Below, piece after piece: positions 8,761 to 24,820 of a stretch of DNA of 64,000 nucleotides (its first letter is position 1; every line of letters begins with the position of its first letter). This stretch comes from Clostridia bacterium (lineage in GTDB: Bacteria; Bacillota; Clostridia; UMGS1883), in the NCBI GenBank assembly GCA_017440585.1, contig JAFSGW010000017.1, forward strand, positions 17,401 through 81,400. The letters run 5' to 3'. A model generated the notes under the pieces. The model did no database searches, was not told the origin of the DNA, and was given only the letters and a program-made list of their open reading frames with translations. A program made the translations under genes and the position numbers.

Positions 8761-9333
8761 TTATGCAAGGAATATTTCACGTTTTCTTAAGGATGCACTT
8801 ATGCTTGGAAGAAGGGCGAGGATAAACGCCGCAATTTCCTCAGGGGATTTGTCGAAGCCACACTTTACCCACTGTTCAAGCATTCCCAATACGCCCATGA
8901 ACATAAAGCGGAAGATATAGTCCTTATCCTCTTCGGAAACATTGTCGTGATAGTCGAGCTGGGCAAGTCGCTTTACAGCTACCTCAGAAAAGCGAACACG
9001 GAAGGAGTTATTGAAGTCGGGTCGCATAAGTATTTTAAAAAGCTCGCCGTTTGATTTCATGTAATGAAGAAACTCTGTAAGCCCTTCAACACGATTGCCT
9101 TTTATGCTTACCTTGGCAAGGCAGGTGTTGATTTTTTCAACGCTGTCGTTTTCGATTTCATCGCAAAGAGCAAACTGGTCCACATAGTGCAGATAAAAGG
9201 TGGAGCGGTTAACATCGGCGTTTTCGCAGATTTCCTTAATAGTAATCTTTGGAAGGGGCTTTTCCTTTAAAAGCTCAAGAAGACTTTCCTTGAGAAGTGT
9301 TTTGGTCATGGTAACCCGACGGCTTTCTTTCAT
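8761..9333 (-). CDS. TetR/AcrR family transcriptional regulator
   Basis: N-terminal HTH LKESLLELLKEKPLPKITIKEICENADVNRSTFYLHY; RBS AGGAGA 8 nt upstream of ATG at 9333. Confidence 0.85.
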   Translation of the reverse strand: MKESRRVTMTKTLLKESLLELLKEKPLPKITIKEICENADVNRSTFYLHYVDQFALCDEIENDSVEKINTCLAKVSIKGNRVEGLTEFLHYMKSNGELFKILMRPDFNNSFRVRFSEVAVKRLAQLDYHDNVSEEDKDYIFRFMFMGVLGMLEQWVKCGFDKSPEEIAAFILALLPSISASLRKREIFLA

Positions 9334-9351
9334 GATGATTCTCCTTCTGAG

Positions 9352-9376
9352 TAGACAAAAATATTATAAGTGTCTA
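9352..9376. promoter_or_regulatory. Inverted repeat TAGACA-N13-TGTCTA in the TetR promoter region (candidate autoregulatory operator)
   Basis: Perfect 6-bp arms about 20 nt upstream of the TetR start codon on the minus strand. Confidence 0.4.
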
Positions 9377-9435
9377 TTTTACAACATAAACGCCATAATA
9401 TAAACACAACACAACGAATTTTGAGCATCTGATTG

Positions 9436-9464
9436 TTGTTTTTTCGACACAGTGTCATTATAAT
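9436..9464 (+). promoter_or_regulatory. degV promoter (TTGTTT-17-TATAAT) with palindrome GACAC-A-GTGTC in the spacer
   Basis: Hexamers and the 11-bp palindrome at about 9446-9456 read directly. Confidence 0.45.
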
Positions 9465-9501
9465 ATTTTTAGATTAAAAAGTCAATAAAGGAGATATAAA
9501 A

Positions 9502-10326
9502 ATGAGCTATAGAATTGTTATGGACAGTGCAGGAGAAGTGAATGAAAGGCTTTCTGGCAAGGTTGTAAGCGTGCCTTTGACAGTAAGCATAAACGGCAAG
9601 GATTATATTGCCGACGAGAATATGGACATAGACACCTTCCGCAAGGAGGTAAGAGAGTCGAAGGAGCCACCAAGAAGCTCCTGTCCTTCACCTGATGCCT
9701 TCTGTAATGCTATCGGTGACTGCGACAGAGTGTATATAATTACTATCACAGCGGCACTTTCCGGCTCCTATAACAGTGCAAGACTGGGTCTTCAGATGCA
9801 TCTTGGTGAAAACCCGGGAAAAAAGGGCTATGTTTTCAACTCTCTCAATGCTTCCGGCGGTGAAGCACTTGTGGCGGAAAAAATTATTGAGCTTGAGGAA
9901 AAGGGTCTTGAGTTTGAAGAAATTGTAAAAATCACAGAGGAATATATTCCCACAATTACAACAAACGTTGTGCTCGAGGATTTGAGCGTGCTTTACAAAA
10001 ACGGCAGACTTTCAAAGGTTGCATACGTTGCGACAAGCATTATTGACCTTGTGGCAGTCCTTGGTCTCCGTGAAGGTGAGCTTGTAAAAATTGCTCAGGC
10101 AAGGGGCGTTAAGAGGGCTATAGCAAAGCTCACGGAAACAGCCATTGCCGATATTAAGGAAAGAGGCATTAAAAAGATTACCATTACACACTCTGCGGCA
10201 CCTGAAAGGGCAGAGGCTTTAAAGGCGGCACTTGAAAAAGAAGTAGAGGCAGATATAGTAATTGTGCCTACAGGCGGTCTCATAAGCATGTATGCAGGAG
10301 AAAAGGGTCTTGTAATAAGTTATTAA
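9502..10326 (+). CDS. DegV family fatty-acid-binding protein (FakB-like)
   Basis: MSYRIVMDSAGEV..., YIITITAALSGSYNSARLG, 274 aa, typical DegV/EDD fold family. Confidence 0.8.
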   Translation: MSYRIVMDSAGEVNERLSGKVVSVPLTVSINGKDYIADENMDIDTFRKEVRESKEPPRSSCPSPDAFCNAIGDCDRVYIITITAALSGSYNSARLGLQMHLGENPGKKGYVFNSLNASGGEALVAEKIIELEEKGLEFEEIVKITEEYIPTITTNVVLEDLSVLYKNGRLSKVAYVATSIIDLVAVLGLREGELVKIAQARGVKRAIAKLTETAIADIKERGIKKITITHSAAPERAEALKAALEKEVEADIVIVPTGGLISMYAGEKGLVISY

Positions 10327-10331
10327 TATCG

Positions 10332-10368
10332 AAAGCGACATCTTACTGAAAAGATGTCGCTTTTATTT
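10332..10368 (+). terminator. Rho-independent terminator after degV
   Basis: AAGCGACATCTT / AAGATGTCGCTT stem followed by TTTTATTTG. Confidence 0.8.
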
Positions 10369-10369
10369 G

Positions 10370-10398
10370 TTTACACAAAGAGAAATTCCTTCTATAAT
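10370..10398 (+). promoter_or_regulatory. Sigma-A type promoter (TTTACA-17-TATAAT) for the CAZyme island
   Basis: Near-consensus hexamers with 17-nt spacer about 25 nt upstream of ATG 10424. Confidence 0.5.
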
Positions 10399-10423
10399 AG
10401 TATTAAAGAATGGGGGAGTTTTT

Positions 10424-13400
10424 ATGAAAAAGTTTATATCGATTGTTCTGGCGGGAATAATGTGTACAGGAGCTATACCTGCAATAGCAATGGAGGCTGA
10501 TAATGTGACGGAAAATATTATTTATGTATCCCAAACAGGCTTGGATACAAACGAAGGCAGCTTTGAAAAACCGGTGCAGTCACTTAATGTTGCCCGTGAC
10601 ATGGCAAGAGAAATGGAAGGCGAGGTGGAGATTGTTCTTCGTGGCGGCGAATATGTTCTCGAAGAAACTCTCACACTTGATAAAAGAGACAGCAACGTAA
10701 AGTGGAAAAGCTATGAGGGCGAGATCGCCATTGTTACAAGTGCCCGTGATATAACAGACTGGACAATTCATGATGAAGAGAAAAACATTTATAAAGCAGA
10801 GCTTGAGGAAGGCTTTATGACACGTCAGGTGTATTTTAACGGCGAAAAGGCGAAGAGAAGCAGAAGCATTTCCTACAAGGGTGGCTACAGCAACCTTGAC
10901 CGCACCTGCGAATTGGGCTTAAGGTCGCGTAACAGCAGAGAATTTTATTTTTACCGTAATGAGGTAGATAACTGGAACAATTTTGAGGATGTTGAAATAC
11001 ATCTTCTTTCCGCATGGGTTGACAATGTTTTCAGACTTAAAAAGTATGATGGCGAAAAGAACTTTTCGGAAACCACTGTTGATAACGGAGGAAGTGAGGG
11101 TGTAGTTTCTGCTGCTGCGGTAAAAATTCAGGATATTGAAGCAGAAAGAATTTTTAACCGTGCTCACCCCGACCTTACGGGTACAACACGCGGTTATGCA
11201 TCCAGAAGCTATTATTACTTTGAAAACGCCTACGAGTTTATTGATGAGGACCTGGAGTGGTATATTGATAAGCATACAGATACCATTTATTTCAAGGCTC
11301 CTTCGGGCGTTGATATGAACAAGGCAAGAATTACTGTGCCTACATTGGAAACCCTTATCAATATTGAAGGCGACAAGGAAAACAAAGCCGAAAATATTAC
11401 CTTTGAAAACATTACATTTGAATGCACAACATGGACACTCCCCGGTGAGGAAGGTCTTGTTGGGGCTCAGGCGTGCCAGTACACATTAACTACAACATTG
11501 GACAATAAAACAACAGTGTATCATATTCCTGCGGGCTTTTATGCCACATATGCGGATAACCTCCTTGTGAAAGGCTGTACCTTCCGCAAAATGGGTGCGA
11601 TGGGGCTTGACTATTATGAAGGTGTGACAAACAGCAATATTTTTGAAAACGAGGTTTATGATGTTGCGGCAACGGGTATTTCAATTGCCAAGTTCGTGCA
11701 GGACGAAAAAACGGAGTATCACACTGCTTATAACCCCTCAGATAAAAGAGAAATCACAAAAAACATTAATGTTATAAATAATAAGGTGCATCATATAGGC
11801 ACAGAATACGAGGGGGCTGTAGGTATTGCGGCAGGCTATCCCGAGCATATTATAATTGCACATAACGACATTCATAATGTGCCTTATTCTGGTATTTCCG
11901 TAGGCTTTGGCTGGTCTGATGCAGATAATGCCATGAAGCACAATATGATTTTTGCAAACAAGCTTGTTTCTTTGGGTGAGGTGCTTTGTGACTTTGGCGG
12001 TATTTACACTCTTTCAAAACAGCCCGGCAGTGTTTGTGCACGTAACTTTATGGATAATATAAAGAGAAAGGCATGGTTTGACTATGCCTATGCGGCAATG
12101 TATTTTGACGAGCAGACAGAAGGATATGTAATTGAAGACAACCTTTTGGTGAACATTGGCTCCGATGCATGGGGCGGTGGAATTAATTTCAATGGCTGTA
12201 AGAGCAAAAATACCCTCAGGACAAATTATGTAAATAAACCGATTGATACAAACGAAACAACACTTGCAGTATATAATGAGGCAGGTGTGCAATCTGTTGA
12301 AAGTGATGTGCTTGTAAAGGAAGCAGAGGAATACCTTGATAAAATAATAAACCCCGAGGAGCCCTATGACGAAGCAGATTATATGGTGCACAGAGAAATT
12401 ATGCCCATAAAGGCTACTGCAACAAGGGCAGATAGCGGAAGTGATGCATCCTATGCAATTGATAGAAACGGAAACACATCCTATAAGCTTTCCGGGCAGA
12501 CAGCAGAGAGTGCAAAAAATGAATATCTCTTAATTGAGCTTGACGGTAAGAGTGTTGTTGACAGCATTGTGATTGATAAAGAATATCATGCAGGCGGTAT
12601 TAATGAATATGACTACTGGGCAGACTGGTGTATGGCGGTAGGCTGTGAGCTTCAGGGCTCTGTGGATGGTACAACGTGGAAAACAATAGGTGTTATGAAT
12701 ACCTGGCCCGACGGTGTGACAGAGCCTGAAAGTGAGGTGTTTAACCTTGCAGAGCCTATGGCGTATAAGTACATAAGATACATCAGAACAACCGTTAAAA
12801 AGAGCGGTGATTACGGCTACTGGCTCTGGAGCTCTTCTGACGGAGGAAACCGTTTGAACATAAAAGAAATTAGCTTCTTTGGTTCAGTACCCTCCACAAG
12901 GCTTGAACCGATTAACGTAACTGCAACGGGCTGTGACGAAGACAGCGACCCTTCCTATGCAACAGACGGAAACCATAAAACCGTGTATACCCTTTCAAAT
13001 CAGACAGCTGACAGCATGAAGGATGAGTACCTTCTTCTTGAGCTTGACGGAAAGAGAACAGTTGACAAGATAATTATCCGCAGACAGTTTAATGCGGCAA
13101 ACGGCACGGTGAATAACTACTGGTATGACTGGGGTCTTGCGGTAGGCTGTGAGCTTCAGGGTTCCTTTGACGGTGAACAATGGGAGACAATTGCAGTTAT
13201 GAACACCTGGCCTGACGGAAAGGGAGAAACAACCAAGGAGGTATTTGAGCTTCAAAAGCCTGCTAAGTATAAATATGTGAGATACATAAGAACAAAGTAC
13301 AAAACAGGCAGTGATTACCTTGTATGGCTCTGGAAAAATACCGATGGAGGAAACAGACTGAATGTTAAGGAAATTGAGCTTTATTCAGCCCAGAGACCGG

Positions 13401-13663
13401 GAATTTCCTCTGTTAATGAGGAAGGAAAAGAAATTAAGGTAGAGCTTGAAAATGTTTTTGAAGCAAAGGGTGTGCTCTGTGTAGCCTTCTATAATGAGGA
13501 TGAGCTTTTGAATGCGGAAACAAAAATGGTTGAAGAAGGAAAGACAGAGTATTACTTTAAAAAGGCAGATGGGGCAAAGAAAATCAAGGCAATGATAATT
13601 GACCTTGAAAAGGCGGAGCCCCTTTGTGAGTGTAAGATAGCGAGCGAGGAGGAAATAAAATGA
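10424..13663 (+). CDS. Secreted right-handed beta-helix protein (probable glycoside hydrolase/lyase) with two F5/8 type C (discoidin, CBM32-like) modules
   Basis: Signal peptide MKKFISIVLAGIMCTGAIPAIA; parallel beta-helix repeat signatures (NNKVHHIGTEYEGAVGIAAG, IIIAHNDIHNVPYSGISVGFGWS); two about 160-aa modules sharing ...ATDGN...EYLL(I/L)ELDG...AVGCELQGS...YIRYIRT...GGNRLN(I/V)KEI; start chosen at the internal M with RBS GGGGGAG. Confidence 0.7.
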   Translation: MKKFISIVLAGIMCTGAIPAIAMEADNVTENIIYVSQTGLDTNEGSFEKPVQSLNVARDMAREMEGEVEIVLRGGEYVLEETLTLDKRDSNVKWKSYEGEIAIVTSARDITDWTIHDEEKNIYKAELEEGFMTRQVYFNGEKAKRSRSISYKGGYSNLDRTCELGLRSRNSREFYFYRNEVDNWNNFEDVEIHLLSAWVDNVFRLKKYDGEKNFSETTVDNGGSEGVVSAAAVKIQDIEAERIFNRAHPDLTGTTRGYASRSYYYFENAYEFIDEDLEWYIDKHTDTIYFKAPSGVDMNKARITVPTLETLINIEGDKENKAENITFENITFECTTWTLPGEEGLVGAQACQYTLTTTLDNKTTVYHIPAGFYATYADNLLVKGCTFRKMGAMGLDYYEGVTNSNIFENEVYDVAATGISIAKFVQDEKTEYHTAYNPSDKREITKNINVINNKVHHIGTEYEGAVGIAAGYPEHIIIAHNDIHNVPYSGISVGFGWSDADNAMKHNMIFANKLVSLGEVLCDFGGIYTLSKQPGSVCARNFMDNIKRKAWFDYAYAAMYFDEQTEGYVIEDNLLVNIGSDAWGGGINFNGCKSKNTLRTNYVNKPIDTNETTLAVYNEAGVQSVESDVLVKEAEEYLDKIINPEEPYDEADYMVHREIMPIKATATRADSGSDASYAIDRNGNTSYKLSGQTAESAKNEYLLIELDGKSVVDSIVIDKEYHAGGINEYDYWADWCMAVGCELQGSVDGTTWKTIGVMNTWPDGVTEPESEVFNLAEPMAYKYIRYIRTTVKKSGDYGYWLWSSSDGGNRLNIKEISFFGSVPSTRLEPINVTATGCDEDSDPSYATDGNHKTVYTLSNQTADSMKDEYLLLELDGKRTVDKIIIRRQFNAANGTVNNYWYDWGLAVGCELQGSFDGEQWETIAVMNTWPDGKGETTKEVFELQKPAKYKYVRYIRTKYKTGSDYLVWLWKNTDGGNRLNVKEIELYSAQRPGISSVNEEGKEIKVELENVFEAKGVLCVAFYNEDELLNAETKMVEEGKTEYYFKKADGAKKIKAMIIDLEKAEPLCECKIASEEEIK

Positions 13664-16600
13664 AACGAATAGTTTCTGTTATACTGGCAGGAATGCTGAC
13701 ACTTTCGTGCATTCCAATGATTGCAAACGGAGCTGGTACTGACATGAAGCCTTATAAAAAAGGTAATTTTGTAAATAGCTATAATCCGATTATAAGCCGT
13801 ATGGTAAACAGCGGGACCCGTGCATGGCGTGACGGTATGATTTCGGGCAACGGCAGGACGGGTTATGTTACAAGCGGTGAGCCTTATTCCGATGCATTTA
13901 TATTTCAGAATATATTCTTTAACTTTCCCACAAATCAGCCCAGATACACACCCACGGAGCTGACGGGACAGCTTGAAGAAGCAAGAGAGAATGTCTTTAA
14001 CCTTAACGATGACTGGAAAATAAAGGATCAGTATGGTAACACGAGAAAGAGAACCTTCTTTTATTCCTACCATCCGGGGGCACAGCTCCGCCTTACAAGC
14101 AGCTATAAGGACACGGAGAAGGACTATATCCGCTGGACAAACTACGAAACTGCGGAAACGGGCGTTAAGTTTACAGATAAGTACGGCACATGGGAAAGGG
14201 TGAGTTTTACATCACGCCCCGATGATGTGACAGTTACAAAAATGGAAAAGTCCTCGGAAGGAGAGCTTGTCAACATGACCGTTTCCATAGACGATATTGA
14301 AACTATGGCAAAGGGCTGGGACGGTTTTTCTGAAATAAGCCGTATGAAGTACAAAAAAATCGTACCCGATGACTGTTCATATATTGCTCAGTTTGCAAAA
14401 TACCCTGCATACAGCGGAAGTGAGCTGTACGACGGCGGTTATGCCACTGTTACGTACATTATTGCAGAGGGTAAGGATGCAAAGAAAACAAGGGTTGAAA
14501 CTGCAAACAATGAGTCCTATTTCACGGGCAAAAACTATGCGGTAAAAATTGAAAACGCTGAAGCGGTTTACCTTATTACTGCGGTGGACAGAACCTTTAA
14601 TATGACAGGTCAGTCCACGGGCGATGTTATGACAAAATTTGTGAATATGACAAGTTACCCCTTCCTTGACGAAATGGTTGAAAAGCTTGAGGACGTTAAG
14701 GAAAAGTACACGGAAGATGGAAGCTTCAGCTACGAAAAAATACTTGAGCCTTCTGCAAAAATACAAAGTGAGGCTATTAATAATGTGAGCTTTGAGCTTG
14801 CAGGTGATGAGGAGTATGCATCCTACGATAATAATGCACTCATAGGTGTACAACGGGGTACCAGTGGCAGAATAAACCACGAATTTATGCGCCGTGCATA
14901 TGACCAGGCACGCTACGCCCAGGTATGTTGCGGCGGCAGTGCTGCACCAAGACTTTACGGCATGTGGTGCGGTGAATGGAACCCCGGCTGGAGAAGTATA
15001 TATACCCTTGATGCAAACGTTAATTTGCAGACAAGTGCCATGAACACAGGTAACCTTGATGGTAACTTCCAGTACGGCTACATTACATATTTCCTTCGTC
15101 ACAGCCCCGACTTTATGGAAAATGCACGTATGGCATACGGAATGCATGATGCCATTCAGCTCAGTGTTAATACCGATGCTGACAGAGCAATGCACGTTGA
15201 GTACGATAATGCATACCCATTCCAGTACTGGAATGCAGGTGCAAGCTGGTGCTTGCTTCCCATTTTTGAATACTGGCAGTGCTACGGAAACCGGCAGATA
15301 GCAATTAACGAGGATATGCGATTTGAAAACCTTCAGCACGTTTTGGGCGTGAATGACGGTGGACTTACTGATGAGGAATATAATGAAATAAAAGAGCGGG
15401 GCTATCTTGACCTTGAGAAGGACATTTTGTTGCCTCTTCTTACAAAGCAGGCAAACTACTGGGAACAGATTGTAACGCCCAGATATTATACCGACGTTAA
15501 CGGCAAAGCCTGCCACGATGAAAATAAAACAGAATTACTTCCCGGCGAAAAGTATATAATTATACCTACATATTCCCCCGAAAACCATCCTATCGGTTAC
15601 TACAGCACACTTACTGCAAATGCCACCATGGACATTGCGGCAGCACGTGACGGTCTTGATATGGTATGTGCACTTGAAGAAGCTGTAGGAAGAGAGGGCT
15701 GGGAGGACCAGGTTGAAAGATGGCAGAGCCTTAAGGAAAAAATTGCAGACTACAAAACAGATACCGACGGTGCACTCCGTGAGTGGGCAATGGAGGAATA
15801 TCAGGAGAATAACAACCACCGTCACTTAAGCCATCTTTACGTTGCATGGCCAGGATATGATACACAGAATAATCCTGAGTTGGCAAAAGCGGCGAACAAG
15901 GCGCTTGACAACCGCCGTAAATATAATACGGGCGATGCAACAGCGGGTCACGGCTGGATGCATCAGGCTCTTGTTGAAGCACGCTTGAAGCGTGGCGACG
16001 GTATGGTAAGCTCGCTCTTAAAGATGATGAACGGCTCTGCTTATTATTCATCCATGATGACGGACCATGATACAAACAGACGAAATGATACTTATTGTAC
16101 AGATACAGCCTTTGGTACACTTGCTGCAATTAATGAAGCTATGGCATTTTCCTATACGGGACAGATTGAAATACTGCCTGCACTGCCAAAGGAATGGACA
16201 AAGGGCAGTGTTAAGGGGCTTATGGCAAGATGCCGTGTGGAAATTGCCGATATTACATGGGATATTGAAGAACGTGAAGCCTCGGCAACACTTGTTTCCT
16301 CTGAGGATGACAATGTAGTAAAGCTTTCCTCCGGTGAAGCATGGAAAAAGGCAGCAATAAACGGCGAAGAGCTTGAAATTATGCATGGTGAAAGCGGAAA
16401 CTATGTTGAACTTACACTTTCAAAGGATGAAAGCGTGACAGTTGAATTTACCCTTTCAGATGCACCCGACGGCACATACACAATTACAGAGGACGGACAA
16501 TATATGCAGATTTCTGCATATGAAAACGGAAGTGCTCTTACATTTGGTGCTCTTAATGATAAGGCATACTGGGATGTAACAAATACAGATGACGGTTATA

Positions 16601-18219
16601 TCCTTATAAGAAGCACAGCAACAGGTAAATACGTTACAGATGAAAACGGCGTGCTTGTACAGACGAACTATACGGGTGAAGACAACCAGAAGTGGCTTCC
16701 TGAAGATTTCTCAATGACAAGGCTGACAGAATACAGAGAGGTTAACGTTACCCCCGACAGAGTTATTATTACAGCGGATGGTGAAGAGATTGAAAGCCTT
16801 ACAATGGAGGAAGGGGAAACGGTTACTCTTTCTGCAAAAGTTGAGCCTGAGGATGCTTCGGCAACAATTATATGGGCATCGGACAGCATAGGAAGCGGTG
16901 TTGTATTAACAGGTGGCAAGCTTACTGCATATGCACCGGGTAATTTCAATGTTACTGCAACAACTACCACTGGCTATGTGTGCTCACTTCCCGTAAAGGT
17001 TGAGGGAAATGCACGTGATGTCGTTAAGGCAGAGGTAAGTGGCTTTACAAGTGCAGATAACGGCTATAATGGAGATTGGGTACCACAGAATGTGCTTGAC
17101 GGTAAAACGGGTTCGGCATATGCATCAAAGGACGATGGTGCAGTGAAGTATATTGAATTTGAGCTTGAAAAAGAAACTGCAGTTGAGCTTATGTATGTGA
17201 CAGGCAGATTTACGGGTGCTGACGGTGAAGGTGCTTATGCAAAGAGAATTAACGGAGCGAAGATGTATGCTTCCGACAAGCCCTTCGGCAAGAATGTTGC
17301 GAATGCAGTTCTTGTAGGCGAAGTAAGCGGTGTTACCGCAACAAGTGCATATGTTCCTGCCCGTGTCGAAATCAACACAAGAGGCGAAAAGTATAAGTAT
17401 TATACCCTTTATTTTGACACTGTGAACAACGGAAGCAATATTTCACTTGCACTTGATGATATTGCCTTCTATACGGGCGGAAAAAGCTTTGTAGAGAAGC
17501 TTAACCCAATTGTTACTGCAAAGGGAGGAGCAAATCCTTCATATGCAACAGACGGCAATGTGGCTACTATGTTCAGTATTGAAACACAGACAAATTACCC
17601 TAATGAATACATTCAGTTTGAATTGAACGGCATTGCTCCCGTGAATAAAATTGTTGTAAAGAAGGGACTGCTTCCCTTAGGTGGAGTAACCAACTACTGG
17701 GGAGACCATGCATATGCATCGGGCTGTGTGCTTGAAGGAAGCCTTGACGGCATTGAGTGGGAAACCATTTACACGATGACTAAACGCCCCGACGGTACAG
17801 ACAATCAGAGTGAAATTGTTATAACCCCCGAAAACCCCGTGGCTTACAGGTATATCCGCTATATCCGAAAGGAAAGCAACAGTTATATCGGTTGGGCTTC
17901 AAACGGCGGAAACAAGCTTATACTTGCGGATATTGAGTTTTATACAATAAGTGCAGACGTTGAAACAGAGGTTGTAAAAAAGGAGAATAAAGCCGTTACA
18001 ATAAGAGCTAAAAGTAACACAGACGGACAGTTCAGCCTTATTACGGCAGTTTTCGATACTGAAGAAAGACTTGTTGAGGTTGTGACAACACCTTTAAGCT
18101 TAATTGCAGAAACCCCGAAGGAGGTTACTGTTCCCGTAACAAAGGAAGGTAATATAAAGGTTTTTACCTGGGGGAGTAATATGCTCCCCGTAGCAGATAA
18201 AATAAATGTGGAAAAATAG
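13660..18219 (+). CDS. Secreted GH95-family glycoside hydrolase (alpha-L-fucosidase/alpha-L-galactosidase type) with Big_2, ricin-type beta-trefoil and discoidin (CBM32-like) modules
   Basis: Signal peptide MKRIVSVILAGMLTLSCIPMIANGAG; GH95 motifs MWCGEWNPGW...NVNLQTSAMN, HRHLSHLYVAWPG, GHGWMHQALVEARLKRGDG, LPALPKEWTKGSVKGLMARCRVEIADITW; QKW-containing ricin-like module; BIG2-like VTLSAKVEPEDASATIIWASDS; discoidin module with YIRYIR. Confidence 0.8.
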   Translation: MKRIVSVILAGMLTLSCIPMIANGAGTDMKPYKKGNFVNSYNPIISRMVNSGTRAWRDGMISGNGRTGYVTSGEPYSDAFIFQNIFFNFPTNQPRYTPTELTGQLEEARENVFNLNDDWKIKDQYGNTRKRTFFYSYHPGAQLRLTSSYKDTEKDYIRWTNYETAETGVKFTDKYGTWERVSFTSRPDDVTVTKMEKSSEGELVNMTVSIDDIETMAKGWDGFSEISRMKYKKIVPDDCSYIAQFAKYPAYSGSELYDGGYATVTYIIAEGKDAKKTRVETANNESYFTGKNYAVKIENAEAVYLITAVDRTFNMTGQSTGDVMTKFVNMTSYPFLDEMVEKLEDVKEKYTEDGSFSYEKILEPSAKIQSEAINNVSFELAGDEEYASYDNNALIGVQRGTSGRINHEFMRRAYDQARYAQVCCGGSAAPRLYGMWCGEWNPGWRSIYTLDANVNLQTSAMNTGNLDGNFQYGYITYFLRHSPDFMENARMAYGMHDAIQLSVNTDADRAMHVEYDNAYPFQYWNAGASWCLLPIFEYWQCYGNRQIAINEDMRFENLQHVLGVNDGGLTDEEYNEIKERGYLDLEKDILLPLLTKQANYWEQIVTPRYYTDVNGKACHDENKTELLPGEKYIIIPTYSPENHPIGYYSTLTANATMDIAAARDGLDMVCALEEAVGREGWEDQVERWQSLKEKIADYKTDTDGALREWAMEEYQENNNHRHLSHLYVAWPGYDTQNNPELAKAANKALDNRRKYNTGDATAGHGWMHQALVEARLKRGDGMVSSLLKMMNGSAYYSSMMTDHDTNRRNDTYCTDTAFGTLAAINEAMAFSYTGQIEILPALPKEWTKGSVKGLMARCRVEIADITWDIEEREASATLVSSEDDNVVKLSSGEAWKKAAINGEELEIMHGESGNYVELTLSKDESVTVEFTLSDAPDGTYTITEDGQYMQISAYENGSALTFGALNDKAYWDVTNTDDGYILIRSTATGKYVTDENGVLVQTNYTGEDNQKWLPEDFSMTRLTEYREVNVTPDRVIITADGEEIESLTMEEGETVTLSAKVEPEDASATIIWASDSIGSGVVLTGGKLTAYAPGNFNVTATTTTGYVCSLPVKVEGNARDVVKAEVSGFTSADNGYNGDWVPQNVLDGKTGSAYASKDDGAVKYIEFELEKETAVELMYVTGRFTGADGEGAYAKRINGAKMYASDKPFGKNVANAVLVGEVSGVTATSAYVPARVEINTRGEKYKYYTLYFDTVNNGSNISLALDDIAFYTGGKSFVEKLNPIVTAKGGANPSYATDGNVATMFSIETQTNYPNEYIQFELNGIAPVNKIVVKKGLLPLGGVTNYWGDHAYASGCVLEGSLDGIEWETIYTMTKRPDGTDNQSEIVITPENPVAYRYIRYIRKESNSYIGWASNGGNKLILADIEFYTISADVETEVVKKENKAVTIRAKSNTDGQFSLITAVFDTEERLVEVVTTPLSLIAETPKEVTVPVTKEGNIKVFTWGSNMLPVADKINVEK

Positions 18220-18254
18220 CAATATGTGAGGTATAATGTATCTGAGGTGGTTTT

Positions 18255-19043
18255 ATGCTCAGAATTTCAGAGGCTAACATACGTTTTCAGCTTGATAATT
18301 TAAAAATAAAGGTTCTTGGAATAAGCTATGGTGTGTTTTACAAGCCTTTCCCGAAGCACAAACACGGAAACCGTTTTTATGAAGCACATCTTACCTGCGG
18401 AGGAAGCGGTATTCTTATTGCTGACGGAAAGGAGTACCCCTTAAAGGCAGGCACGCTTTATATGACGGGACCTCTGGTTGAGCATGAGCAGATTACAGAT
18501 GTTGAAGACCCCATGGACGAATACTGCATTCAGTTTGAGATTACGGAAAAGCCCGGTGTAAGGCAGGGCAAAACCGCAACCTTCCTGAAGGATACTGTGT
18601 TCTGGATTGGTGAGGATACACAGAATACAAAAAGGCTTTTTGAAATGCTTACCGAGGAGTGCGAAAACAAGAAGATAGGCTACATACAAAGCGTGATAAA
18701 CCTTTCCTGTCAGCTTATGGTGTGCTTTGCACGTAATTATGCAGGCAGTGACCAGGTTGGTGAGTATACGGCAATTACACCCGATGATAAACGTATGATA
18801 ATAACCGATGAAAGCTTTTTGTACAATTACGCCACTATAACACTGCCGCAACTGAGCAGCAGGCTTAACCTGAGCCCCAGGCAGACACAGCGCTTCCTTA
18901 AAAAGGCATACGGTAAGAGCTTTATAGAACTCAGAAGCGAAAGAAGAAAGGAAAAGGCGAAGGAATTTATCAAAAGTGGGAAAAGTGTGATTGAAGCGGC
19001 AACTATGGTCGGGTATACAAATGAAAAAAGCTTAAAGCTTTGA
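18255..19043 (+). CDS. AraC family transcriptional regulator (cupin sensor plus HTH)
   Basis: N-terminal cupin-like region, C-terminal AraC HTH (QTQRFLKKAYGKSFIELRSERRKEKAKEFIKSGKSVIEAATMVGYTNEKS). Confidence 0.75.
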   Translation: MLRISEANIRFQLDNLKIKVLGISYGVFYKPFPKHKHGNRFYEAHLTCGGSGILIADGKEYPLKAGTLYMTGPLVEHEQITDVEDPMDEYCIQFEITEKPGVRQGKTATFLKDTVFWIGEDTQNTKRLFEMLTEECENKKIGYIQSVINLSCQLMVCFARNYAGSDQVGEYTAITPDDKRMIITDESFLYNYATITLPQLSSRLNLSPRQTQRFLKKAYGKSFIELRSERRKEKAKEFIKSGKSVIEAATMVGYTNEKSLKL

Positions 19044-19065
19044 TAGCAAAAATGTCTATTGACTA

Positions 19066-19113
19066 ACACCCCATACTATGATAGAATTACTTATCATGGT
19101 GTGGGGTTGTTTT
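19066..19113 (+). terminator. Imperfect hairpin plus T-run after araC; the stem contains the GGGG Shine-Dalgarno of the next gene
   Basis: ACCCCATACTATGATAG...TTATCATGGTGTGGGGT stem about 16 bp with wobbles, followed by TGTTTTT and ATG 19115. Confidence 0.5.
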
Positions 19114-19114
19114 T

Positions 19115-19564
19115 ATGAAGAAAACTGAAAAATTTGATACAGTAATGCCGCTTATTAAAGAGCGGTTTGAAAAGGGAGAAAGCTTCGTATTTAAGCCCAA
19201 TGGAGTAAGCATGTTGCCATTTATAAAAGGTGGAGAAACATCGGTTGAAATTGAAAAATACGAAGGCGGAGCCGGGATGTTTGACATTGTGTTTTATGTG
19301 CGTGAGGATGGAAAACATGTAATGCACAGAATTGTAAAAATGTACAAAATTGCAAAAATGTACACAAATTCCTTCGGAGTGTGCGGTGATAACCAGTGGT
19401 GGATTGAAGAGGTTAAGGAAGAACAGATTTTTGCCATTGCAAGAAAGGTCTCGGGAAGAAGGCTTCCCGGCAGTTGGTTATACCTTCACACCTTGCCCTT
19501 AAGGCGGTTTGTAATTCATGTTATACAGTATTTAAAAAAGCATATGAGAGGAGAAAAGAAATGA
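19115..19564 (+). CDS. Standalone S24-like (LexA C-terminal-type Ser/Lys) peptidase domain protein
   Basis: GVSMLP (Ser motif), GGETSVEIEK, DIVFYVREDGKHVMHRIVKM (Lys motif); no HTH and no TM; stop overlaps the GH43 start (ATGA). Confidence 0.5.
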   Translation: MKKTEKFDTVMPLIKERFEKGESFVFKPNGVSMLPFIKGGETSVEIEKYEGGAGMFDIVFYVREDGKHVMHRIVKMYKIAKMYTNSFGVCGDNQWWIEEVKEEQIFAIARKVSGRRLPGSWLYLHTLPLRRFVIHVIQYLKKHMRGEKK

Positions 19565-21228
19565 AAAGAGTTTTAGCTTTTGTTATGGCATTTATGATGC
19601 TTTTTGCAATAAGTGTAAGTGCCAACAACCCCATCGTTAAAGAGGACGGTAACGGTAACCGTATTTATGCAGGTGACCCTGCGGCAATTGTTGTTGATGA
19701 TACTGTGTACCTTTTCTGCGGACACGACACATCTACAACAAATTCTTACTACATGCCCGAGTGGCTTTGCTATTCCTCAAAGGACATGATTAACTGGAAG
19801 TATGAAGGCGTGCCCATGAGAGCAAGTGACTTTTCCTGGGGCAGTGCTGCTGATGCCTGGGCAGGTGAGGTTGAATATTATAAGGGCAAGTATTATTTCT
19901 TTATGTGCAAAAACTCCACAGGTATTTCTGTAGGCGTGAGCGACAATATAACCGGGCCTTATAAGGATCACCTGAACGGCGTGAAGCTTGTTCAGCCCGG
20001 CTGGACACGTGGTAAGGTGGGTTGGGACGACATTGACCCTACCGTATGGATTGAGAACGATGAAAAGGGCGTTGAGCACCGCTATATAGCATGGGGCAAC
20101 TCAAACCTTTATATCGCTGAGCTTACTGAGGACATGAAGAGCCTTGTTGACCTTAACGGCGATGGTGCGGTTAACGGTGGCGATATTACTGAAATACATA
20201 TTCAGGACATGCCCAATACAACAGCCTTTACAGAGGCTCCCTGGTTTTATAAAAGAGGGGATTTGTACTATATTTTCTTTGCTAACAGCTGGCACGAAGA
20301 GCTTTCCTATGCCACAAGCAAAAGTGTAACTGGTCCCTATACATACGGCGGAAAGATTATGGAGGCAGGTGCATCCAGTAACACAAACCATCCTTCCGTA
20401 ATTGATTTTAAGGGCAAGACATATATTTTCTATCACACAGGTGCAATGGAAAACGGCAGTGGCTACAGAAGAAGTATTTGCGTTGAAGAGCTTAAGTTCA
20501 ATGATGACGGTTCGATAGACCTCTTCTACGAGAGCAGTGTTGGTCTTGACGGAACAAAGGTTTTTATTTCACCCGTGAGCGACCCTTCAAAGAAAATTTA
20601 TCACGGCTATTTTTCAAACACAATCGAGCCTACTGCATACCCTGCAGGAAGTCTTGTTTTCTGTGATGACTTTACTGTAAATAAAGCTGACTTTGAATGG
20701 GAAATTATTCCCGGCAGAGGAAATGAGGAATATGTTTCCATTCAGGCGGTAAACAAGATGGGCTATTTTATCACAAACTATAATTCCCACGTTAAGGTTC
20801 TGCACGATAACGATGCAACAAGAGAGACTGCACAGAGCATGACCTTTATTGAACGTGATGGCTTGTGCGGTGAAGGTGTGAGCTATGAGAGCATGACGGA
20901 AAAGGGCATGTTTCTTACGGTTGTGGGCAACAGAGTGCAGCTCACCTCAGGTCACGATAAGGAAGCTTCAAGCTTTATTATAACAGAGGTAAATAACCCC
21001 GATAAGCTTACAGTAAGTGCAGACGGGGACGGTATACACCTTAAGGGCACATATACCGGTGATAAGAGAAACGTGCTTTTGTATGTTAAAAATGAAGAAG
21101 GCACAATTGTTGATTTTAAGATTGTAAGAATAAATGAGTCGAGAATGCTTGACTACACCTTCGAGCCTGAAAAGGGCGGAGTATATACTGTTGTATTCGG
21201 CACTTTCAGTGAAAATGTTGAGTTTTAA
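19561..21228 (+). CDS. Secreted GH43 family glycoside hydrolase (arabinofuranosidase/xylosidase type) with C-terminal AbfB/CBM42-like arabinose-binding domain
   Basis: Signal peptide MKRVLAFVMAFMMLFAISVSA; GH43 signatures (IYAGDPAAIVVDDTVYLFCGHD, EAPWFYKRGDLYYIFFA); C-terminal region with beta-trefoil-like repeats (YFITNYNSHVKVL, GMFLTVVGNRVQL). Confidence 0.8.
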   Translation: MKRVLAFVMAFMMLFAISVSANNPIVKEDGNGNRIYAGDPAAIVVDDTVYLFCGHDTSTTNSYYMPEWLCYSSKDMINWKYEGVPMRASDFSWGSAADAWAGEVEYYKGKYYFFMCKNSTGISVGVSDNITGPYKDHLNGVKLVQPGWTRGKVGWDDIDPTVWIENDEKGVEHRYIAWGNSNLYIAELTEDMKSLVDLNGDGAVNGGDITEIHIQDMPNTTAFTEAPWFYKRGDLYYIFFANSWHEELSYATSKSVTGPYTYGGKIMEAGASSNTNHPSVIDFKGKTYIFYHTGAMENGSGYRRSICVEELKFNDDGSIDLFYESSVGLDGTKVFISPVSDPSKKIYHGYFSNTIEPTAYPAGSLVFCDDFTVNKADFEWEIIPGRGNEEYVSIQAVNKMGYFITNYNSHVKVLHDNDATRETAQSMTFIERDGLCGEGVSYESMTEKGMFLTVVGNRVQLTSGHDKEASSFIITEVNNPDKLTVSADGDGIHLKGTYTGDKRNVLLYVKNEEGTIVDFKIVRINESRMLDYTFEPEKGGVYTVVFGTFSENVEF

Positions 21229-21240
21229 GGAGGGGATAAC

Positions 21241-23229
21241 ATGAAAAAATATATTGGTTTAATTTTAGCTTTAGTATGTGTTTTGTGCTTATCTCTTCAT
21301 GCGATAGCAGCAGAAACACTTTACTACACCTTTGACGGCAGTGACAGCCTTACATCTGTTACAAACACCCTTAAAGCAGGTGCAAATGCGGCAATCGGAG
21401 ACGGAGTTCTTAAGCTTAACGGAACTTACGGCTTAAAGCTCGGCTCAGTGGGAAGCAGCTTTTCTGTTTCTGCAATGGTGAAAATAGATTCAAACGGCGG
21501 AACGGACACTATTTTCTTCAAGGATATGGACAATAAGGGCGATAAATGGACAGGCGTTTTGTCCAATGCTAAGAAACCCTCCTTCTGGACACATGGCACA
21601 AGCCACAGATGGGAAACCGTTGCCTCGGGAACAGAAAATTTAGGCGAATGGAGCCATATTGCATATGTTGAAAATAATAGCACGGGCTCACTTTATGTGA
21701 ATGGTGAGCTTGTTGGAAGCGGAAGCGTTGAAAGTGGTGCAGGCACCCTTTACCTTGGTGCAACCTACTGGAGTGCCGATGCACCCTCGGGTATGGTTGA
21801 CAATGTAAAGCTTTTTAATAACGCCCTTACCGCAGGCGAGGTTATGTCGGAATACGAAAGCAATATTGACTTTGAAAGTGCTTTAAAGCTTCCCCGGGAT
21901 GTTATTTCCGATATTGAGCTTGTAAAGAAGGTCGGAACAAAGGTTGTTACCTGGGCAAGCAGTAACGAAGCTGTCATTGATAGAGAAGGTAAGGTAACAC
22001 GTGCCGATGAGGACGTTACTGTTACACTTACTGCCACAGTTGACGGTGAGGTTGTGGGTGAGTTTGAAGTAACGGTGCTTAAAAAGCCCGGTAAGGCAAA
22101 TGATGATGTAATTCTTTCCTATGTGTTTGACTTGGAAAATGATGGCGATATTATCCACGATATGTCCGGTAACGGAAACCACGGTGCGGCATATAACGGT
22201 CTTGAAATTACAAAGGATGGTGCACACTTTGACGGTAGCGACGACTATGTGAAATTAGTTGACGGTATTCTTTACGGGCATGATGAAATTACAATATGCA
22301 CAACCTTTAAGCCCACCGCAGCACAGAAGCATGTGTTCTTATACGGCTTTGGCAACGGTACAGAAACAGGCTATATGTTCCTTAACCCCTCAAGACCTAC
22401 AACAAACACCCTTCGTTTTGCAATGACGAAAACAAATGCAGGGAACGAAAGCTCACTTGTTTCTCTGCCCGGCATCCGTATTAACGAAGAGGTGAACGTG
22501 ACTGTAGTCATAGTGGACAAATATGCCTCTATGTATGTTGATGGTGAATTGGTTATGGATGGCGACCTGGGTATGACAGTAAGTGCCCTTGGCGAAACTA
22601 AGGAAAACTACATTGGTAAATCTCTTTATGAGGCTGATCCTTATTTTGCAGGTTACATGAAGGAGTTTACTGTGTATAACTATGCTATGCGCGAAAGCAG
22701 GATAAAGGAGCTTTACGGAAAGAGCGTTGAATATGCTGAAAGTGATGAAGTGAAAGAGTATATACAGAGCGTTTCCTTTGAGAACGGAATAGAGGTTACG
22801 GTTGATACTTTCAACCGCAATGATGTAAAAATTGGTGTTGTTGTGCTTGATGAGAATTATGAAGTTATTGAATTCAGCGTAAATGATGCCGAAGACGAAA
22901 TTGCAGTTACAAAGGATGGTACAGTTTGTGTATTTGCCTTTGATGAAGAAACAAACACACCCGGAAGCATATTTGTGAAGGGTGAGGGTGAAGGCTTTAC
23001 CTACGAGCATACCCCCGGAGTGGTTAAAATTACAGCAGAAAGCACCCTTAAAGGCGGTATTGCCATAGTTGCAGGCTATGACACCACAGGAGCATTAACA
23101 GGTGTTGTGTGCAAGGCTGTTGACCTTACAGAAGGTGTTGGTGAAGCATTTGAAGGCGATTTTGAAAACGCCGTTATGTTCAAAATGTTCTACTGGGGCA
23201 ACCTTGTTGCCATGATTCCTATGGAATAA
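21241..23229 (+). CDS. Secreted protein with two concanavalin A-like/LamG (Laminin_G_3) lectin domains
   Basis: Signal peptide MKKYIGLILALVCVLCLSLHAIA; LamG-type motifs LYLGATYWSADAPSGMVDNVKLFNNALTAGEV and NYIGKSLYEADPYFAGYMKEFTVYNYAMRESRIKELYG. Confidence 0.7.
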   Translation: MKKYIGLILALVCVLCLSLHAIAAETLYYTFDGSDSLTSVTNTLKAGANAAIGDGVLKLNGTYGLKLGSVGSSFSVSAMVKIDSNGGTDTIFFKDMDNKGDKWTGVLSNAKKPSFWTHGTSHRWETVASGTENLGEWSHIAYVENNSTGSLYVNGELVGSGSVESGAGTLYLGATYWSADAPSGMVDNVKLFNNALTAGEVMSEYESNIDFESALKLPRDVISDIELVKKVGTKVVTWASSNEAVIDREGKVTRADEDVTVTLTATVDGEVVGEFEVTVLKKPGKANDDVILSYVFDLENDGDIIHDMSGNGNHGAAYNGLEITKDGAHFDGSDDYVKLVDGILYGHDEITICTTFKPTAAQKHVFLYGFGNGTETGYMFLNPSRPTTNTLRFAMTKTNAGNESSLVSLPGIRINEEVNVTVVIVDKYASMYVDGELVMDGDLGMTVSALGETKENYIGKSLYEADPYFAGYMKEFTVYNYAMRESRIKELYGKSVEYAESDEVKEYIQSVSFENGIEVTVDTFNRNDVKIGVVVLDENYEVIEFSVNDAEDEIAVTKDGTVCVFAFDEETNTPGSIFVKGEGEGFTYEHTPGVVKITAESTLKGGIAIVAGYDTTGALTGVVCKAVDLTEGVGEAFEGDFENAVMFKMFYWGNLVAMIPME

Positions 23230-23243
23230 AGAGGGTGTAATAA

Positions 23244-23660
23244 TTGATACTTTTGGTTTTATTGGGTATAGGTTTTATAATTTTCGGACTTTTCTATTTT
23301 GACGATTCCGGTCTTTTCGGCTTTGGTCGCAGAAAATGGTACGAAGCAGAGCTTATAGACGAGGTTGAAGATGAGGTGTACGACAACATAGGCGGTACGA
23401 AAACAAGATTTTTCAAGGCTTATGAGTTTGAAGAGGATGGCGAAAAGAAGGTTGTACGCTCACAGAGACCTCTTAAGAGAATTACCAACAAGGTTGGCAG
23501 AAAAACAAAAATCCTTGTGGACTCAAAAAGCCGTAAGGCAATGGATAAGCAGGATGTAATACTGTATCGCACCATTGCAGCAATTTTCGTTGCAGTCGGT
23601 ATTTTACTAATTGCAGGTGTAGTGTATATTAAGCTTAACGTAAAGGGAGCTGTTCTCTGA
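23244..23660 (+). CDS. Small membrane protein with N- and C-terminal TM helices (DUF3592-like)
   Basis: MILLVLLGIGFIIFGLFYF... and AIFVAVGILLIAGVVYI; charged soluble core; 1-nt stop/start overlap with the sirtuin gene. Confidence 0.45.
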   Translation: MILLVLLGIGFIIFGLFYFDDSGLFGFGRRKWYEAELIDEVEDEVYDNIGGTKTRFFKAYEFEEDGEKKVVRSQRPLKRITNKVGRKTKILVDSKSRKAMDKQDVILYRTIAAIFVAVGILLIAGVVYIKLNVKGAVL

Positions 23661-24376
23661 TGGACAAAATCCGGAAGCTTCAGGACATGATAAATAAAAG
23701 TGAACGTATTGTGTTTTTTGGCGGTGCAGGCGTTTCAACAGAATCGGGCATTCCCGATTTCAGAAGTGTTGACGGACTGTATAATCAAAAATACGAATTT
23801 CCCCCTGAGGAAATTATAAGCCACAGCTTTTATAAAAGTAACCCTGAGGAATTTTACCGTTTTTATAAGGACAGAATGATATTTCCTTTGGCTGTGCCCA
23901 ACAAAGCACACGAGTACCTTGCAAGGCTTGAAAAAACGGGGAAATTAAAGGCTGTTATCACACAGAATATTGATTCTCTGCACACGATGGCAGGCTGTGA
24001 AAATGTGCTTGAGCTTCACGGCTCGGTAATGCGGAATTACTGTGAAAAATGCGGTAAGTTCTATGACCTTGACTATGTTATGGCAACAGAGGGAGTGCCC
24101 ATGTGTGAATGTGGTGGAAGGGTAAAGCCCGATGTGGTTCTGTATGAGGAACAGCTTGACGGCAAAATACTCAAAGATGCGGTAAATGCGATAGAAAGTG
24201 CCGATATGCTTATAATAGGAGGCACAAGCCTGATTGTTTACCCTGCTGCAGGACTTATAAGGCATTTTTTCGGAGACCATCTTGTGATTATAAATAAAAG
24301 CGAAACCACTGCTGATAACTGGGCTGACCTGGTTATACACGAACCAATTGGCGAGGTTTTCGGACAGTTAAAATAA
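23660..24376 (+). CDS. NAD-dependent protein deacylase (Sir2 family, class-U-like sirtuin)
   Basis: FFGGAGVSTESGIPDFRS, catalytic His in LELHGS, Zn ribbon CEKCGK...CECGG; 238 aa. Confidence 0.85.
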   Translation: MDKIRKLQDMINKSERIVFFGGAGVSTESGIPDFRSVDGLYNQKYEFPPEEIISHSFYKSNPEEFYRFYKDRMIFPLAVPNKAHEYLARLEKTGKLKAVITQNIDSLHTMAGCENVLELHGSVMRNYCEKCGKFYDLDYVMATEGVPMCECGGRVKPDVVLYEEQLDGKILKDAVNAIESADMLIIGGTSLIVYPAAGLIRHFFGDHLVIINKSETTADNWADLVIHEPIGEVFGQLK

Positions 24377-24387
24377 GGAGAAAAAAT

Positions 24388-24717: not shown

Positions 24718-24721
24718 TGAG

Positions 24722-24757: not shown

Positions 24758-24760
24758 AGT

Positions 24761-24789: not shown

Positions 24790-24820
24790 TAATAGCGATA
24801 ATTTGGAGGGAGGGGTAAAA

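Follow-up and report, generated by a model that had tools for sequence, protein, structure and literature searches.

Two adjacent putative transcription units for extracellular glycan-active enzymes in a Clostridia bacterium: a GH141-GH95-AraC-like cassette with a candidate operator and a GH43-CBM42 operon

Composition of the region and comparison with related loci

We analyzed a 64-kb stretch of DNA from a Clostridia bacterium (contig JAFSGW010000017.1; hereafter the window), in which a group of genes encodes a beta-helix enzyme of glycoside hydrolase (GH) family 141, a divergent GH95 enzyme, an AraC-like regulator, an S24/S26-like peptidase homolog, a GH43 enzyme with an AbfB/CBM42 carbohydrate-binding module, and a LamG lectin-like protein (Table 1). 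A preliminary description of the region had listed a promoter, four signal-peptide proteins and an AraC gene, all of which were present, and had read them as one AraC-centered island; it overlooked a 149-aa open reading frame (ORF), a 138-aa ORF, the hairpin at 19068-19107 that splits the region, a C-terminal module shared among the proteins, and a GH141_M domain match. Comparison with related loci points to two adjacent, independently inherited transcription units, both for extracellular enzymes: unit A, which appears to be an accessory cassette, and unit B, a predicted lineage-core operon with a separate promoter and no tie to the AraC-like gene. Taken as a whole, with the functional reading set out below, we give this explanation a little better than an even chance.

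The single-island view did not survive comparison with a relative (L091; L numbers are our own for related loci) whose flanks match those of the window, with cobW ... U32, phosphoglucomutase, TetR and DegV on one side and SIR2, DUF6054, Rrf2 and CysK on the other. In that genome the S24/S26-like gene, GH43-CBM42, LamG, a small membrane protein and SIR2 directly follow DegV, and GH141, GH95 and the AraC-like gene are all missing, such that unit B exists without unit A. Alignment of the junctions placed the insertion in the window at ~10328-19060, between the DegV stop and the motif ATTGACT, and in L091 ATTGACT and the S24/S26-like gene lie right behind DegV. Another relative (L090/L087) carries GH141-GH78-GH95-AraC and then the same S24/S26-GH43-LamG set. 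ATTGACT holds the −35 hexamer (TTGACT) of the unit B promoter, which has a TG element and sits within the left arm of a hairpin, an arrangement kept in three genomes (the window; L091 at ~9945-9995, after DegV; and L090 at ~9770-9830, after AraC). This boundary hairpin would terminate upstream read-through, and the embedded promoter would start unit B. As a side observation, the hairpin can be formed by read-through transcripts and not by transcripts begun at the embedded promoter.

Using a GH141 profile, we recovered 79 loci. GH141, a GH95 of this clade and an AraC-like gene were adjacent in ~42 of ~50 Clostridia loci, with identities of 48-82% for GH95 and 29-78% for the AraC-like protein, and the exceptions were mostly short contigs or contig edges; GH141 homologs of Bacteroidota and Fibrobacter were found without these partners. 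A literature search for the trio in Firmicutes returned metagenome surveys only. The trio sits in many unrelated genomic contexts, with unit B genes beside it only in the window's own lineage, and holds for long secreted and for short lipoprotein or transmembrane (TM)-anchored enzymes alike. In Acutalibacteraceae, for example, the gene order is GH95 <- regulator -> GH141, the GH141 protein has 636 aa and a lipoprotein-type signal, and the GH95 protein has 888 aa and an N-terminal membrane anchor. At L004 (5658-9817), the trio cassette adjoins UxaC, a mannitol-dehydrogenase-family (UxuB/UxaB-type) gene and UxuA, which together represent hexuronate catabolism.

What looked like one island is two units that recently came to lie side by side. 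Because unit B stands alone in L091, the trio occurs in unrelated contexts, and no copy of the palindrome that may serve as the operator of unit A was found before GH43 in a scan of the window, co-regulation of all four enzymes by the AraC-like protein is unlikely and should not be assumed.

The upstream flank consists of housekeeping genes (DegV, phosphoglucomutase, U32 peptidase), as does the downstream flank (SIR2, Rrf2, CysK, NifS/NifU, NadA). There was no ATP-binding cassette (ABC) or phosphotransferase system (PTS) gene among the flanking genes scanned between 244 and 48567 of the window (a few ORFs there and the sequence beyond 48.6 kb lay outside the scan), and none of SusC/D, ABC or PTS was linked to GH141 and GH95 in L003-L005, L085 and L087-L091. 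The window and the related loci thus lack the linked transporter of a polysaccharide utilization locus (PUL) or an operon joining carbohydrate-active enzymes (CAZymes) with a transporter. The proposal of secreted, modular, side-chain-trimming glycosidases without a transporter was supported, and the lack of a transporter extends to every related locus examined. An Rfam scan of 9000-25500 returned no riboswitch or known RNA, its sole match being a chance miRNA (E 0.96). Farther downstream, 5.7 kb from the region, genes for an 851-aa PcRGLX-like protein (PL26-type fold), a short-chain dehydrogenase and a MatE transporter (28909-33626) may form another pectin-related unit.

The window is a metagenome scaffold whose GH141 protein is 100% identical to an NCBI-listed "Clostridia bacterium" protein from a metagenome-assembled genome (MAG). 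The MAGs of its relatives belong to Clostridia, Oscillospiraceae, Acutalibacteraceae and Candidatus Fimenecus, and the named hosts are herbivore guts.

Table 1 Features of the region and their positions in the window (HTH, helix-turn-helix)
Feature	Position	Strand	Remarks
Region genes (GH141, GH95, AraC-like, S24/S26-like, GH43-CBM42, LamG)	10424-23229	+	
Unit A (operator/hairpin, promoter, GH141, GH95, AraC-like regulator)	10328..19060	+	Boundaries from comparison with L091
Hairpin with T-run	10331-10364		−19.6 kcal/mol, z −7.8; holds palindrome
Palindrome CGACAT-N12-ATGTCG, candidate operator	10336..10359	.	
Sigma-70-type promoter TTTACA-17-TATAAT	10370..10398	+	Scores 11/12
Secreted GH141-family beta-helix glycosidase	10424..13663	+	1079 aa
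GH141 catalytic Asp523	11990-11992		
GH141 catalytic Asp562	12107-12109		
Shared C-terminal beta-sandwich, GH141	13424-13630		~70-75 aa
Secreted divergent GH95	13660..18219	+	1519 aa; ATGA overlap with GH141
GH95 Asp451	15010-15012		YTLDANVN
GH95 Glu641	15580-15582		SPEN
GH95 Asp815	16102-16104		CTD
Shared C-terminal beta-sandwich, GH95	17986-18195		~70-75 aa
Possible own promoter of regulator TGGAAA-17-TATAAT	18209-18237		
AraC-like regulator	18255..19043	+	262 aa; cupin sensor, first HTH, truncated second HTH
Boundary element (hairpin and unit B promoter)	19059..19107	+	
Unit B promoter TTGACT-17-TAGAAT	19059-19087		Part of boundary element
17-bp hairpin with T-run	19068-19107		Part of boundary element
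S24/S26-like peptidase homolog	19115..19564	+	149 aa; no TM; ATGA overlap with GH43
Secreted GH43 (arabinofuranosidase/xylosidase-type) with AbfB/CBM42	19561..21228	+	555 aa
Secreted non-catalytic lectin-like protein	21241..23229	+	LamG_3, aBig_2, LamG_3, beta-sandwich, tail aa 594-661
Shared C-terminal beta-sandwich, LamG	23020-23223		~70-75 aa
Two-TM protein	23244-23660	+	138 aa
SIR2 deacetylase	23660-24376	+	Start overlaps preceding stop
DUF6054	24388-24717	+	
Terminator-like hairpin after DUF6054	~24725-24755		

Enzymes, accessory proteins and a shared C-terminal module

The beta-helix enzyme, wrongly left without a family in the preliminary description, is by sequence comparison a GH141 homolog. 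It matched the founding member of the family, BT_1002 (PDB 5mqp_A; phmmer E 8.8e-47, query 32-573 against chain 26-580), with which it shares 30.8% identity over 520 aligned positions, and the insertion domain GH141_M of Pfam scored 33.1 bits against a cut-off of 27. Query residues D523 and D562, both invariant in 16 relatives, align with D528 and D569 of the 5mqp chain; we took these to be the published D523 and D564 of BT1002 at a +5 offset, the only assignment that fits the 41-residue spacing, and both are essential in BT1002 by mutagenesis (PMC10154630, PMC12786026). Behind the signal peptide, the protein comprises a catalytic part (~aa 30-640), two F5/8-type-C (CBM32-like) modules (~aa 670-975) and a tail (aa 1001-1069). 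GH141 has three known activities (alpha-L-fucosidase, endo-xylanase and endo-fucanase), and the group to which the query belongs is 27-35% identical to BT1002 within the match list. The new specificity that had been suggested for this enzyme may therefore still hold, given a clade apart from BT1002, within a family that is now assigned.

The GH95 protein combines the three domains of its family (N-terminal beta-sandwich, (alpha/alpha)6 catalytic domain and C-terminal domain) with a ricin-like domain, Big_2, two F5/8-type-C modules and a tail (aa 1443-1512). All three family domains scored above their Pfam cut-offs (Glyco_hyd_65N_2, 61.6 bits; Glyco_hydro_95_cat, 139.8 bits; Glyco_hydro_95_C, 46.7 bits), and RicinB_lectin_2 scored 25.0 bits against a cut-off of 25.6. 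Significant alignment to solved GH95 structures was confined to the C-terminal half of the catalytic domain (best match 7kmq, E 1e-21). The motifs YSPEN (E641) and CTD (D815) line up with their counterparts in 7kmq, 2rdy and 4ufc and are conserved in four orthologs, and HRHLSHL is present; from what is known of AfcA, we take E641 to be the general acid and D815 the Asp of the base-activating network. The three domains, the SPEN Glu, HRH(L/V)SHL and the base-network Asp are thus shared with BACOVA_03438 (4ufc) and the Xanthomonas enzyme (7kmq), while the window protein differs in ~600 aa of added lectin-like modules and in an apparent Asp at the first Asn of N-x-N, the pair by which the catalytic water is positioned. 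At this site (15001-15024, aa 448-455), it reads YTLDANVN where solved GH95 enzymes have YT(L/I)NIN, a difference kept in four orthologs at 56-72% identity. Asp451 falls opposite the first Asn when no gap is allowed, whereas a 2-residue shift gives N-V-N, and the alignments here are weak (domain E 4-100). The window enzyme has a Thr at a position that is also Thr in 2rdy, 4ufc and 7kmq, the three best-matching solved chains, and this residue, which is His in AfcA, presumably marks L-galactose-tolerant GH95 enzymes.

Unit B opens with the 149-aa ORF, whose relatives NCBI names 'S24/S26 family peptidase' and which had no sequence match in Pfam, NCBIfam or PDB. Invariant residues (G30, S32, M33, P35, H71, R72, G91, D92, N93 and E98) and the motifs GxSMxP, HR and GDN characterize it, and its AlphaFold2 model (predicted local distance difference test, pLDDT, 82) had SpsB, SEC11C, LexA and UmuD as best Foldseek matches, all weak (E ≥ 3e-3). 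Close orthologs always head the GH43-CBM42 operon, which recalls Bacillus subtilis tapA-sipW-tasA (S26B), where a small peptidase with GxSMxP, HR and GDN heads a secreted-protein operon. Unlike SipW, the 149-aa protein lacks a TM segment, and its distant homologs (L092 8001-8435; L093 1941-2420) lie with PqqD and ScmC (plus an ABC exporter, a nucleotidyltransferase and small ORFs) in clusters resembling those for ribosomally synthesized and post-translationally modified peptides (RiPPs). Both differences weaken the candidate role of a SipW-like dedicated signal peptidase, and a cytoplasmic leader-peptidase-type role would be at least as likely.

The GH43 protein unites a five-bladed propeller catalytic domain (Glyco_hydro_43, 136.6 bits) with a beta-trefoil of the AbfB type (40.7 bits), and its PDB matches were xylosidase/arabinofuranosidases (8hcj, E 1.5e-60; 4nov, Xsa43E; 3qed, CjAbf43A; overall E 1e-55 to 1e-60). 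The triad D39, D159 and E225 is present, with DPA, IDPT and EAPW aligned to 8hcj, as befits a GH43-CBM42 enzyme. The LamG protein has no catalytic domain, and the nearest solved structures are a domain of an S-layer protein and one of an extracellular arabinanase. In other genomes the LamG_3-aBig_2 pair is fused to a GH43-related or beta-helix domain, which suggests an accessory binding role. We detected no terminator between LamG and the two-TM ORF, SIR2 and DUF6054, whose order is the same in L091; a deacetylase co-transcribed with secreted glycan-binding proteins is odd.

In each of the four enzymes and lectins, the only hydrophobic segment is N-terminal and has an end of the Ala-X-Ala type. 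Searches for anchors returned no dockerin, SLH or Gram-positive anchor (Pfam), no LPXTG (regular expression) and no C-terminal TM segment (hydropathy), and the four proteins are thus neither cellulosomal nor wall-anchored in a known way. Three of them, GH141, GH95 and LamG, share a C-terminal beta-sandwich with the ending pattern K-x-F/M-x-W...P-L/V, which also occurs in L003-L016. A profile seeded solely from the last 85 residues of GH141 orthologs picked up the extreme C-terminus of the window GH95 (E 1e-8) and, with a weak score, that of LamG; the tail of GH43 was not counted as a member (E 0.02-0.06 against this profile). After iteration, the profile found 44 proteins in the fetched loci, always ending within 14 residues of the C-terminus, among GH141, GH95, GH78, GH2, CBM35, beta-helix and LamG proteins. 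In a search of 1.84 billion representative proteins, it matched 1,691 clusters at E ≤ 0.001, and 118 of the best 150 matches ended within 15 residues of the C-terminus; ten sampled carriers included cohesin proteins, BspA-type leucine-rich-repeat surface proteins and CBM proteins.

Neither the tails nor the products of the two small ORFs gave a meaningful match in Pfam searches at E ≤ 10. The AlphaFold2 model of the tail (pLDDT 87) is a seven-stranded sandwich of fibronectin type III (FN3)/immunoglobulin (Ig)-like type, and a fold search with it returned only generic FN3/Ig-like sandwiches (TM-score ~0.6, none at E ≤ 0.001) from which no function could be read. In Acutalibacteraceae, the orthologous enzymes lack the tail and have membrane anchors instead. 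These patterns are suggestive of a role of the module in surface retention or sorting. The description of the proteins as free enzymes is uncertain because GH141, GH95 and LamG share a C-terminal module that also occurs on cohesin and BspA-type surface proteins.

Candidate substrates of the cassette

Xyloglucan and arabinoxylan, the targets first proposed, are not the best supported, since the trio itself, an inserted GH78 gene and pectin-related neighbors lean toward pectin. In L087 and L007, the two closest syntenic relatives, a GH78 alpha-L-rhamnosidase gene lies between GH141 and GH95 in one operon. The same three families act on chain A of rhamnogalacturonan II (RG-II) in Bacteroides thetaiotaomicron, where BT1010 (GH95, an alpha-L-galactosidase) starts its breakdown, BT1002 (GH141) frees 2-O-Me-Xyl-Fuc, and BT1001 (GH78) cleaves the leftover Rha-Api (PMC10154630; bioRxiv 10.64898/2026.03.13.711244), and this correspondence, together with the GH78 insertion, underlies the pectic lean. 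Neighbors of the relatives include a PL11 rhamnogalacturonan I (RG-I) lyase, GH30, GH51, GH2 and UxaC/UxuA/UxuB, and we also counted the PcRGLX-like protein of the window toward this lean. On these comparisons, a pectic target seems somewhat more likely than hemicellulose, and a target like RG-II chain A, or a related one bearing fucose, L-galactose and rhamnose, would be the most likely single option, at a probability that stays short of even.

According to this model, enzymes of both units would clip side-chain sugars from complex plant glycans, the GH141-GH95 pair would remove L-fucose- or L-galactose-containing units from pectic side chains of the RG-II chain A type while the F5/8-type-C modules held both enzymes on the polymer, and transporters encoded elsewhere would import the released sugars.

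Several points weigh against this assignment. Most of the families required for RG-II breakdown are missing: the loci contain no GH137-GH140 and no GH142/143, and GH2 in one locus only; moreover, on true RG-II, action of the BT1002 type needs prior removal of glucuronic acid. At 27-31% identity to BT1002, the window GH141 falls outside the clade of that enzyme, within which identity to BT1002 is 50-68%, and an endo-xylanase (PMC5593877) and endo-fucanases (PMC12786026) also belong to GH141. In this GH95 clade, D-A-N seems to stand in place of the canonical N-x-N, and the chemistry of its GH95 enzymes may differ. A PDB search with the F5/8-type-C modules gave no matches, so no ligand can be inferred. 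GH95, GH43-CBM42 and one GH141 have hemicellulose precedents. A literature search for the trio in Firmicutes returned metagenome surveys only.

These precedents are at the heart of the strongest competing explanation, in which one island under AraC control supplies free enzymes for debranching decorated hemicellulose, with GH95 taking alpha-L-Fuc or alpha-L-Gal off xyloglucan or corn glucuronoarabinoxylan, GH43-CBM42 removing arabinofuranose and the beta-helix enzyme cutting the backbone or an unusual side chain, a combination we consider unlikely. GH95 enzymes do act on fucosylated xyloglucan and L-galactosylated xylan (PMC10154630), the GH141 enzyme Xyn141E is an endo-xylanase encoded beside GH43, GH2 and CE1 (PMC5593877), GH43 and CBM42 are classic modules for arabinoxylan and arabinan, and a GH31 gene occurs near the L007 locus. 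Identity to BT1002, however, is 31% for the window GH141 and 20.7% for Xyn141E (PMC5593877), the GH78 insertion in two close relatives and the pectin and hexuronate genes near others point elsewhere, and the window holds no xylanase, xyloglucanase, esterase or beta-galactosidase. The separability of units A and B and the lack of a palindrome before GH43 also speak against one island.

A non-plant target of unit A, namely fucosylated glycans of mucin or other animal origin, microbial exopolysaccharide or algal fucans, with the F5/8-type-C modules binding galactose or GalNAc, is improbable. F5/8-type-C (CBM32-like) modules are common on mucin-degrading enzymes, and all carriers are gut bacteria. 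GH95 enzymes also release alpha-1,2-linked fucose from O-glycans of mucin and from milk oligosaccharides, and endo-fucanases are known in GH141 (PMC10154630, PMC12786026), yet the carriers come mostly from herbivore guts, plant-type genes are co-located (GH43, CBM42, GH51, GH78, PL11, GH30), and no sialidase, GH20, GH29, GH33 or sulfatase lies nearby.

The preferred pectic reading does not make the cassette a copy of the B. thetaiotaomicron RG-II genes (BT1002/BT1010/BT1001). The same three families occur together in both, and the GH141 Asp pair is conserved, but the window GH141 (27-31% identity) belongs to another clade and the GH95 has diverged strongly, apparently also in its N-x-N region. 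The window also lacks SusC/D, a hybrid two-component system (HTCS) regulator and all of the other ~20 RG-II enzymes, and the host is Gram-positive, with secreted enzymes that carry CBM32-like modules. The Acetivibrio (Clostridium) thermocellum Xyn141E operon (Cthe_2194-2197; CE1, GH141, GH43, GH2) resembles the region in being a Clostridia locus with GH141 beside GH43, extracellular enzymes and no linked transporter. Its enzymes, unlike any here, carry CBM6 and dockerin and join the cellulosome, and the operon, which encodes an endo-xylanase, has no GH95 or AraC-like partner such as unit A has.

Candidate operator and AraC-like regulator

Downstream of its −10 element, the promoter before GH141 is followed by a ribosome-binding site (GGGGGAG) and the ATG at 10424, and its position is kept in orthologous loci. 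The palindrome CGACAT-N12-ATGTCG occurs once in the window, before GH141 (0.01 expected). Exact copies of CGACAT-N11-15-ATGTCG numbered 45 in 1.37 Mb of fetched related loci (0.4 expected; ~36 after removal of duplicate loci), with a spacer of 13 nt in most copies (range 12-14) and conservation of the half-sites but not of the spacer sequence. Every copy was intergenic, beside GH141, GH95, the regulator or CAZyme genes of the same locus, and the copies lay in front of GH141 or of the regulator gene, in the gap separating divergent GH95 and GH141 genes or, in one case (L003), in front of another secreted CAZyme gene of that locus. In the window, L003, L007, L010 and L012, the −35 hexamer begins exactly 10 nt past the palindrome. 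In Acutalibacteraceae and Fimenecus, the palindrome lies between divergent GH95 and GH141 or over the −35 and spacer of the regulator's promoter, positions at which a terminator would serve no purpose; in Fimenecus-type loci, this second copy straddles the −35 (TTGCAA/TTACAA, inside the palindrome's spacer) and the region before the −10. Copies or near-copies at L003 6133-6157, L005 2401-2425 and L016 569-592 stand before genes for further secreted CAZymes, namely a beta-helix protein of 1255 aa, a GH95 and a fusion of beta-helix and LamG, which hints at a larger regulon.

The sole regulator conserved with the trio enzymes is the AraC-like protein. It has the cupin sensor of AraC/XylS proteins (AraC_binding, 28.7 bits against a cut-off of 21.1), whereas HTH_18 matched over profile positions 1-61 of 80, where the protein ends, such that the two-HTH region (~100 aa) of the family is incomplete. 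None of the orthologs has an intact second HTH: those of 226-234 aa extend no farther than the first HTH and the window copy breaks off within the second, while a canonical AraC in L007 is more than 20 aa longer. On this domain composition, we file the regulator as AraC-like and not as a canonical AraC/XylS member.

We propose that the palindrome is probably the operator of this regulator, which would dimerize through its cupin domain, place one HTH on each 6-bp half-site and make expression respond to a released sugar; that the second HTH of the orthologs is never intact fits such a dimer at an inverted repeat. The palindrome-adjacent promoter would drive GH141 and the translationally coupled GH95. 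Where the sites lie would suit activation of the enzyme promoters together with autorepression of the regulator's own, as for AraC. The Escherichia coli protein (araBAD/araC) likewise has an N-terminal cupin and a C-terminal HTH region, is encoded next to sugar-active genes, and has a site by the −35 of the enzyme promoter, with sites over the regulator's own promoter in some loci here. It differs from the protein in the window, where one HTH is intact and the candidate sites are inverted 6-bp half-sites 13 nt apart as opposed to 17-bp direct repeats.

Three considerations temper this proposal. The window palindrome is a fully adequate intrinsic terminator for DegV, and with the longer arms and the T-run that it has in the window's lineage it probably serves as one as well; its conservation is in part due to common descent of the cassette; and a near-consensus promoter would not obviously need an activator. 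It is nonetheless improbable that the palindrome came with the cassette purely as a terminator and that the AraC-like protein is a decaying or unrelated one that does not control these genes. The strong hairpin and T-run in the window's lineage, the second HTH that is not intact and a different hairpin at the same place in L004 would agree with that view, but exact half-sites with a 13-nt spacer (12-14) persist across families with unrelated spacer sequence, between divergent genes and over the regulator's −35 and spacer, loops of 13 nt are long for a terminator, and the regulator is kept in almost every locus at 29-78% identity. The L085 site in particular, which lies between divergent genes and folds weakly as RNA (z −1.5), is inexplicable as a terminator.

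The trio components are new members of known families, and the trio with its truncated regulator and palindrome is a variant of a familiar type of system. That the region combines a widespread and so far undescribed single-HTH AraC-like regulon of gut Clostridia (CGACAT-N13-ATGTCG), GH141 and GH95 clades of new specificity, the latter with Asp for Asn in the active site, and a C-terminal tail acting as a new surface retention or sorting module is a broader proposition that we regard as doubtful. The shared C-terminal domain may explain how enzymes without a recognizable anchor stay with the cell. GH95 has so far been treated as a fucosidase/L-galactosidase family, and GH141 as one with three characterized activities; a conserved pair of the two with its own regulator and a readable candidate operator forms a compact, testable entry point, and genome searches for the palindrome could reveal the remaining members of the regulon. 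The cassette could show how uncultured gut Clostridia without Bacteroides-type PULs harvest L-fucose, L-galactose and rhamnose from pectins.

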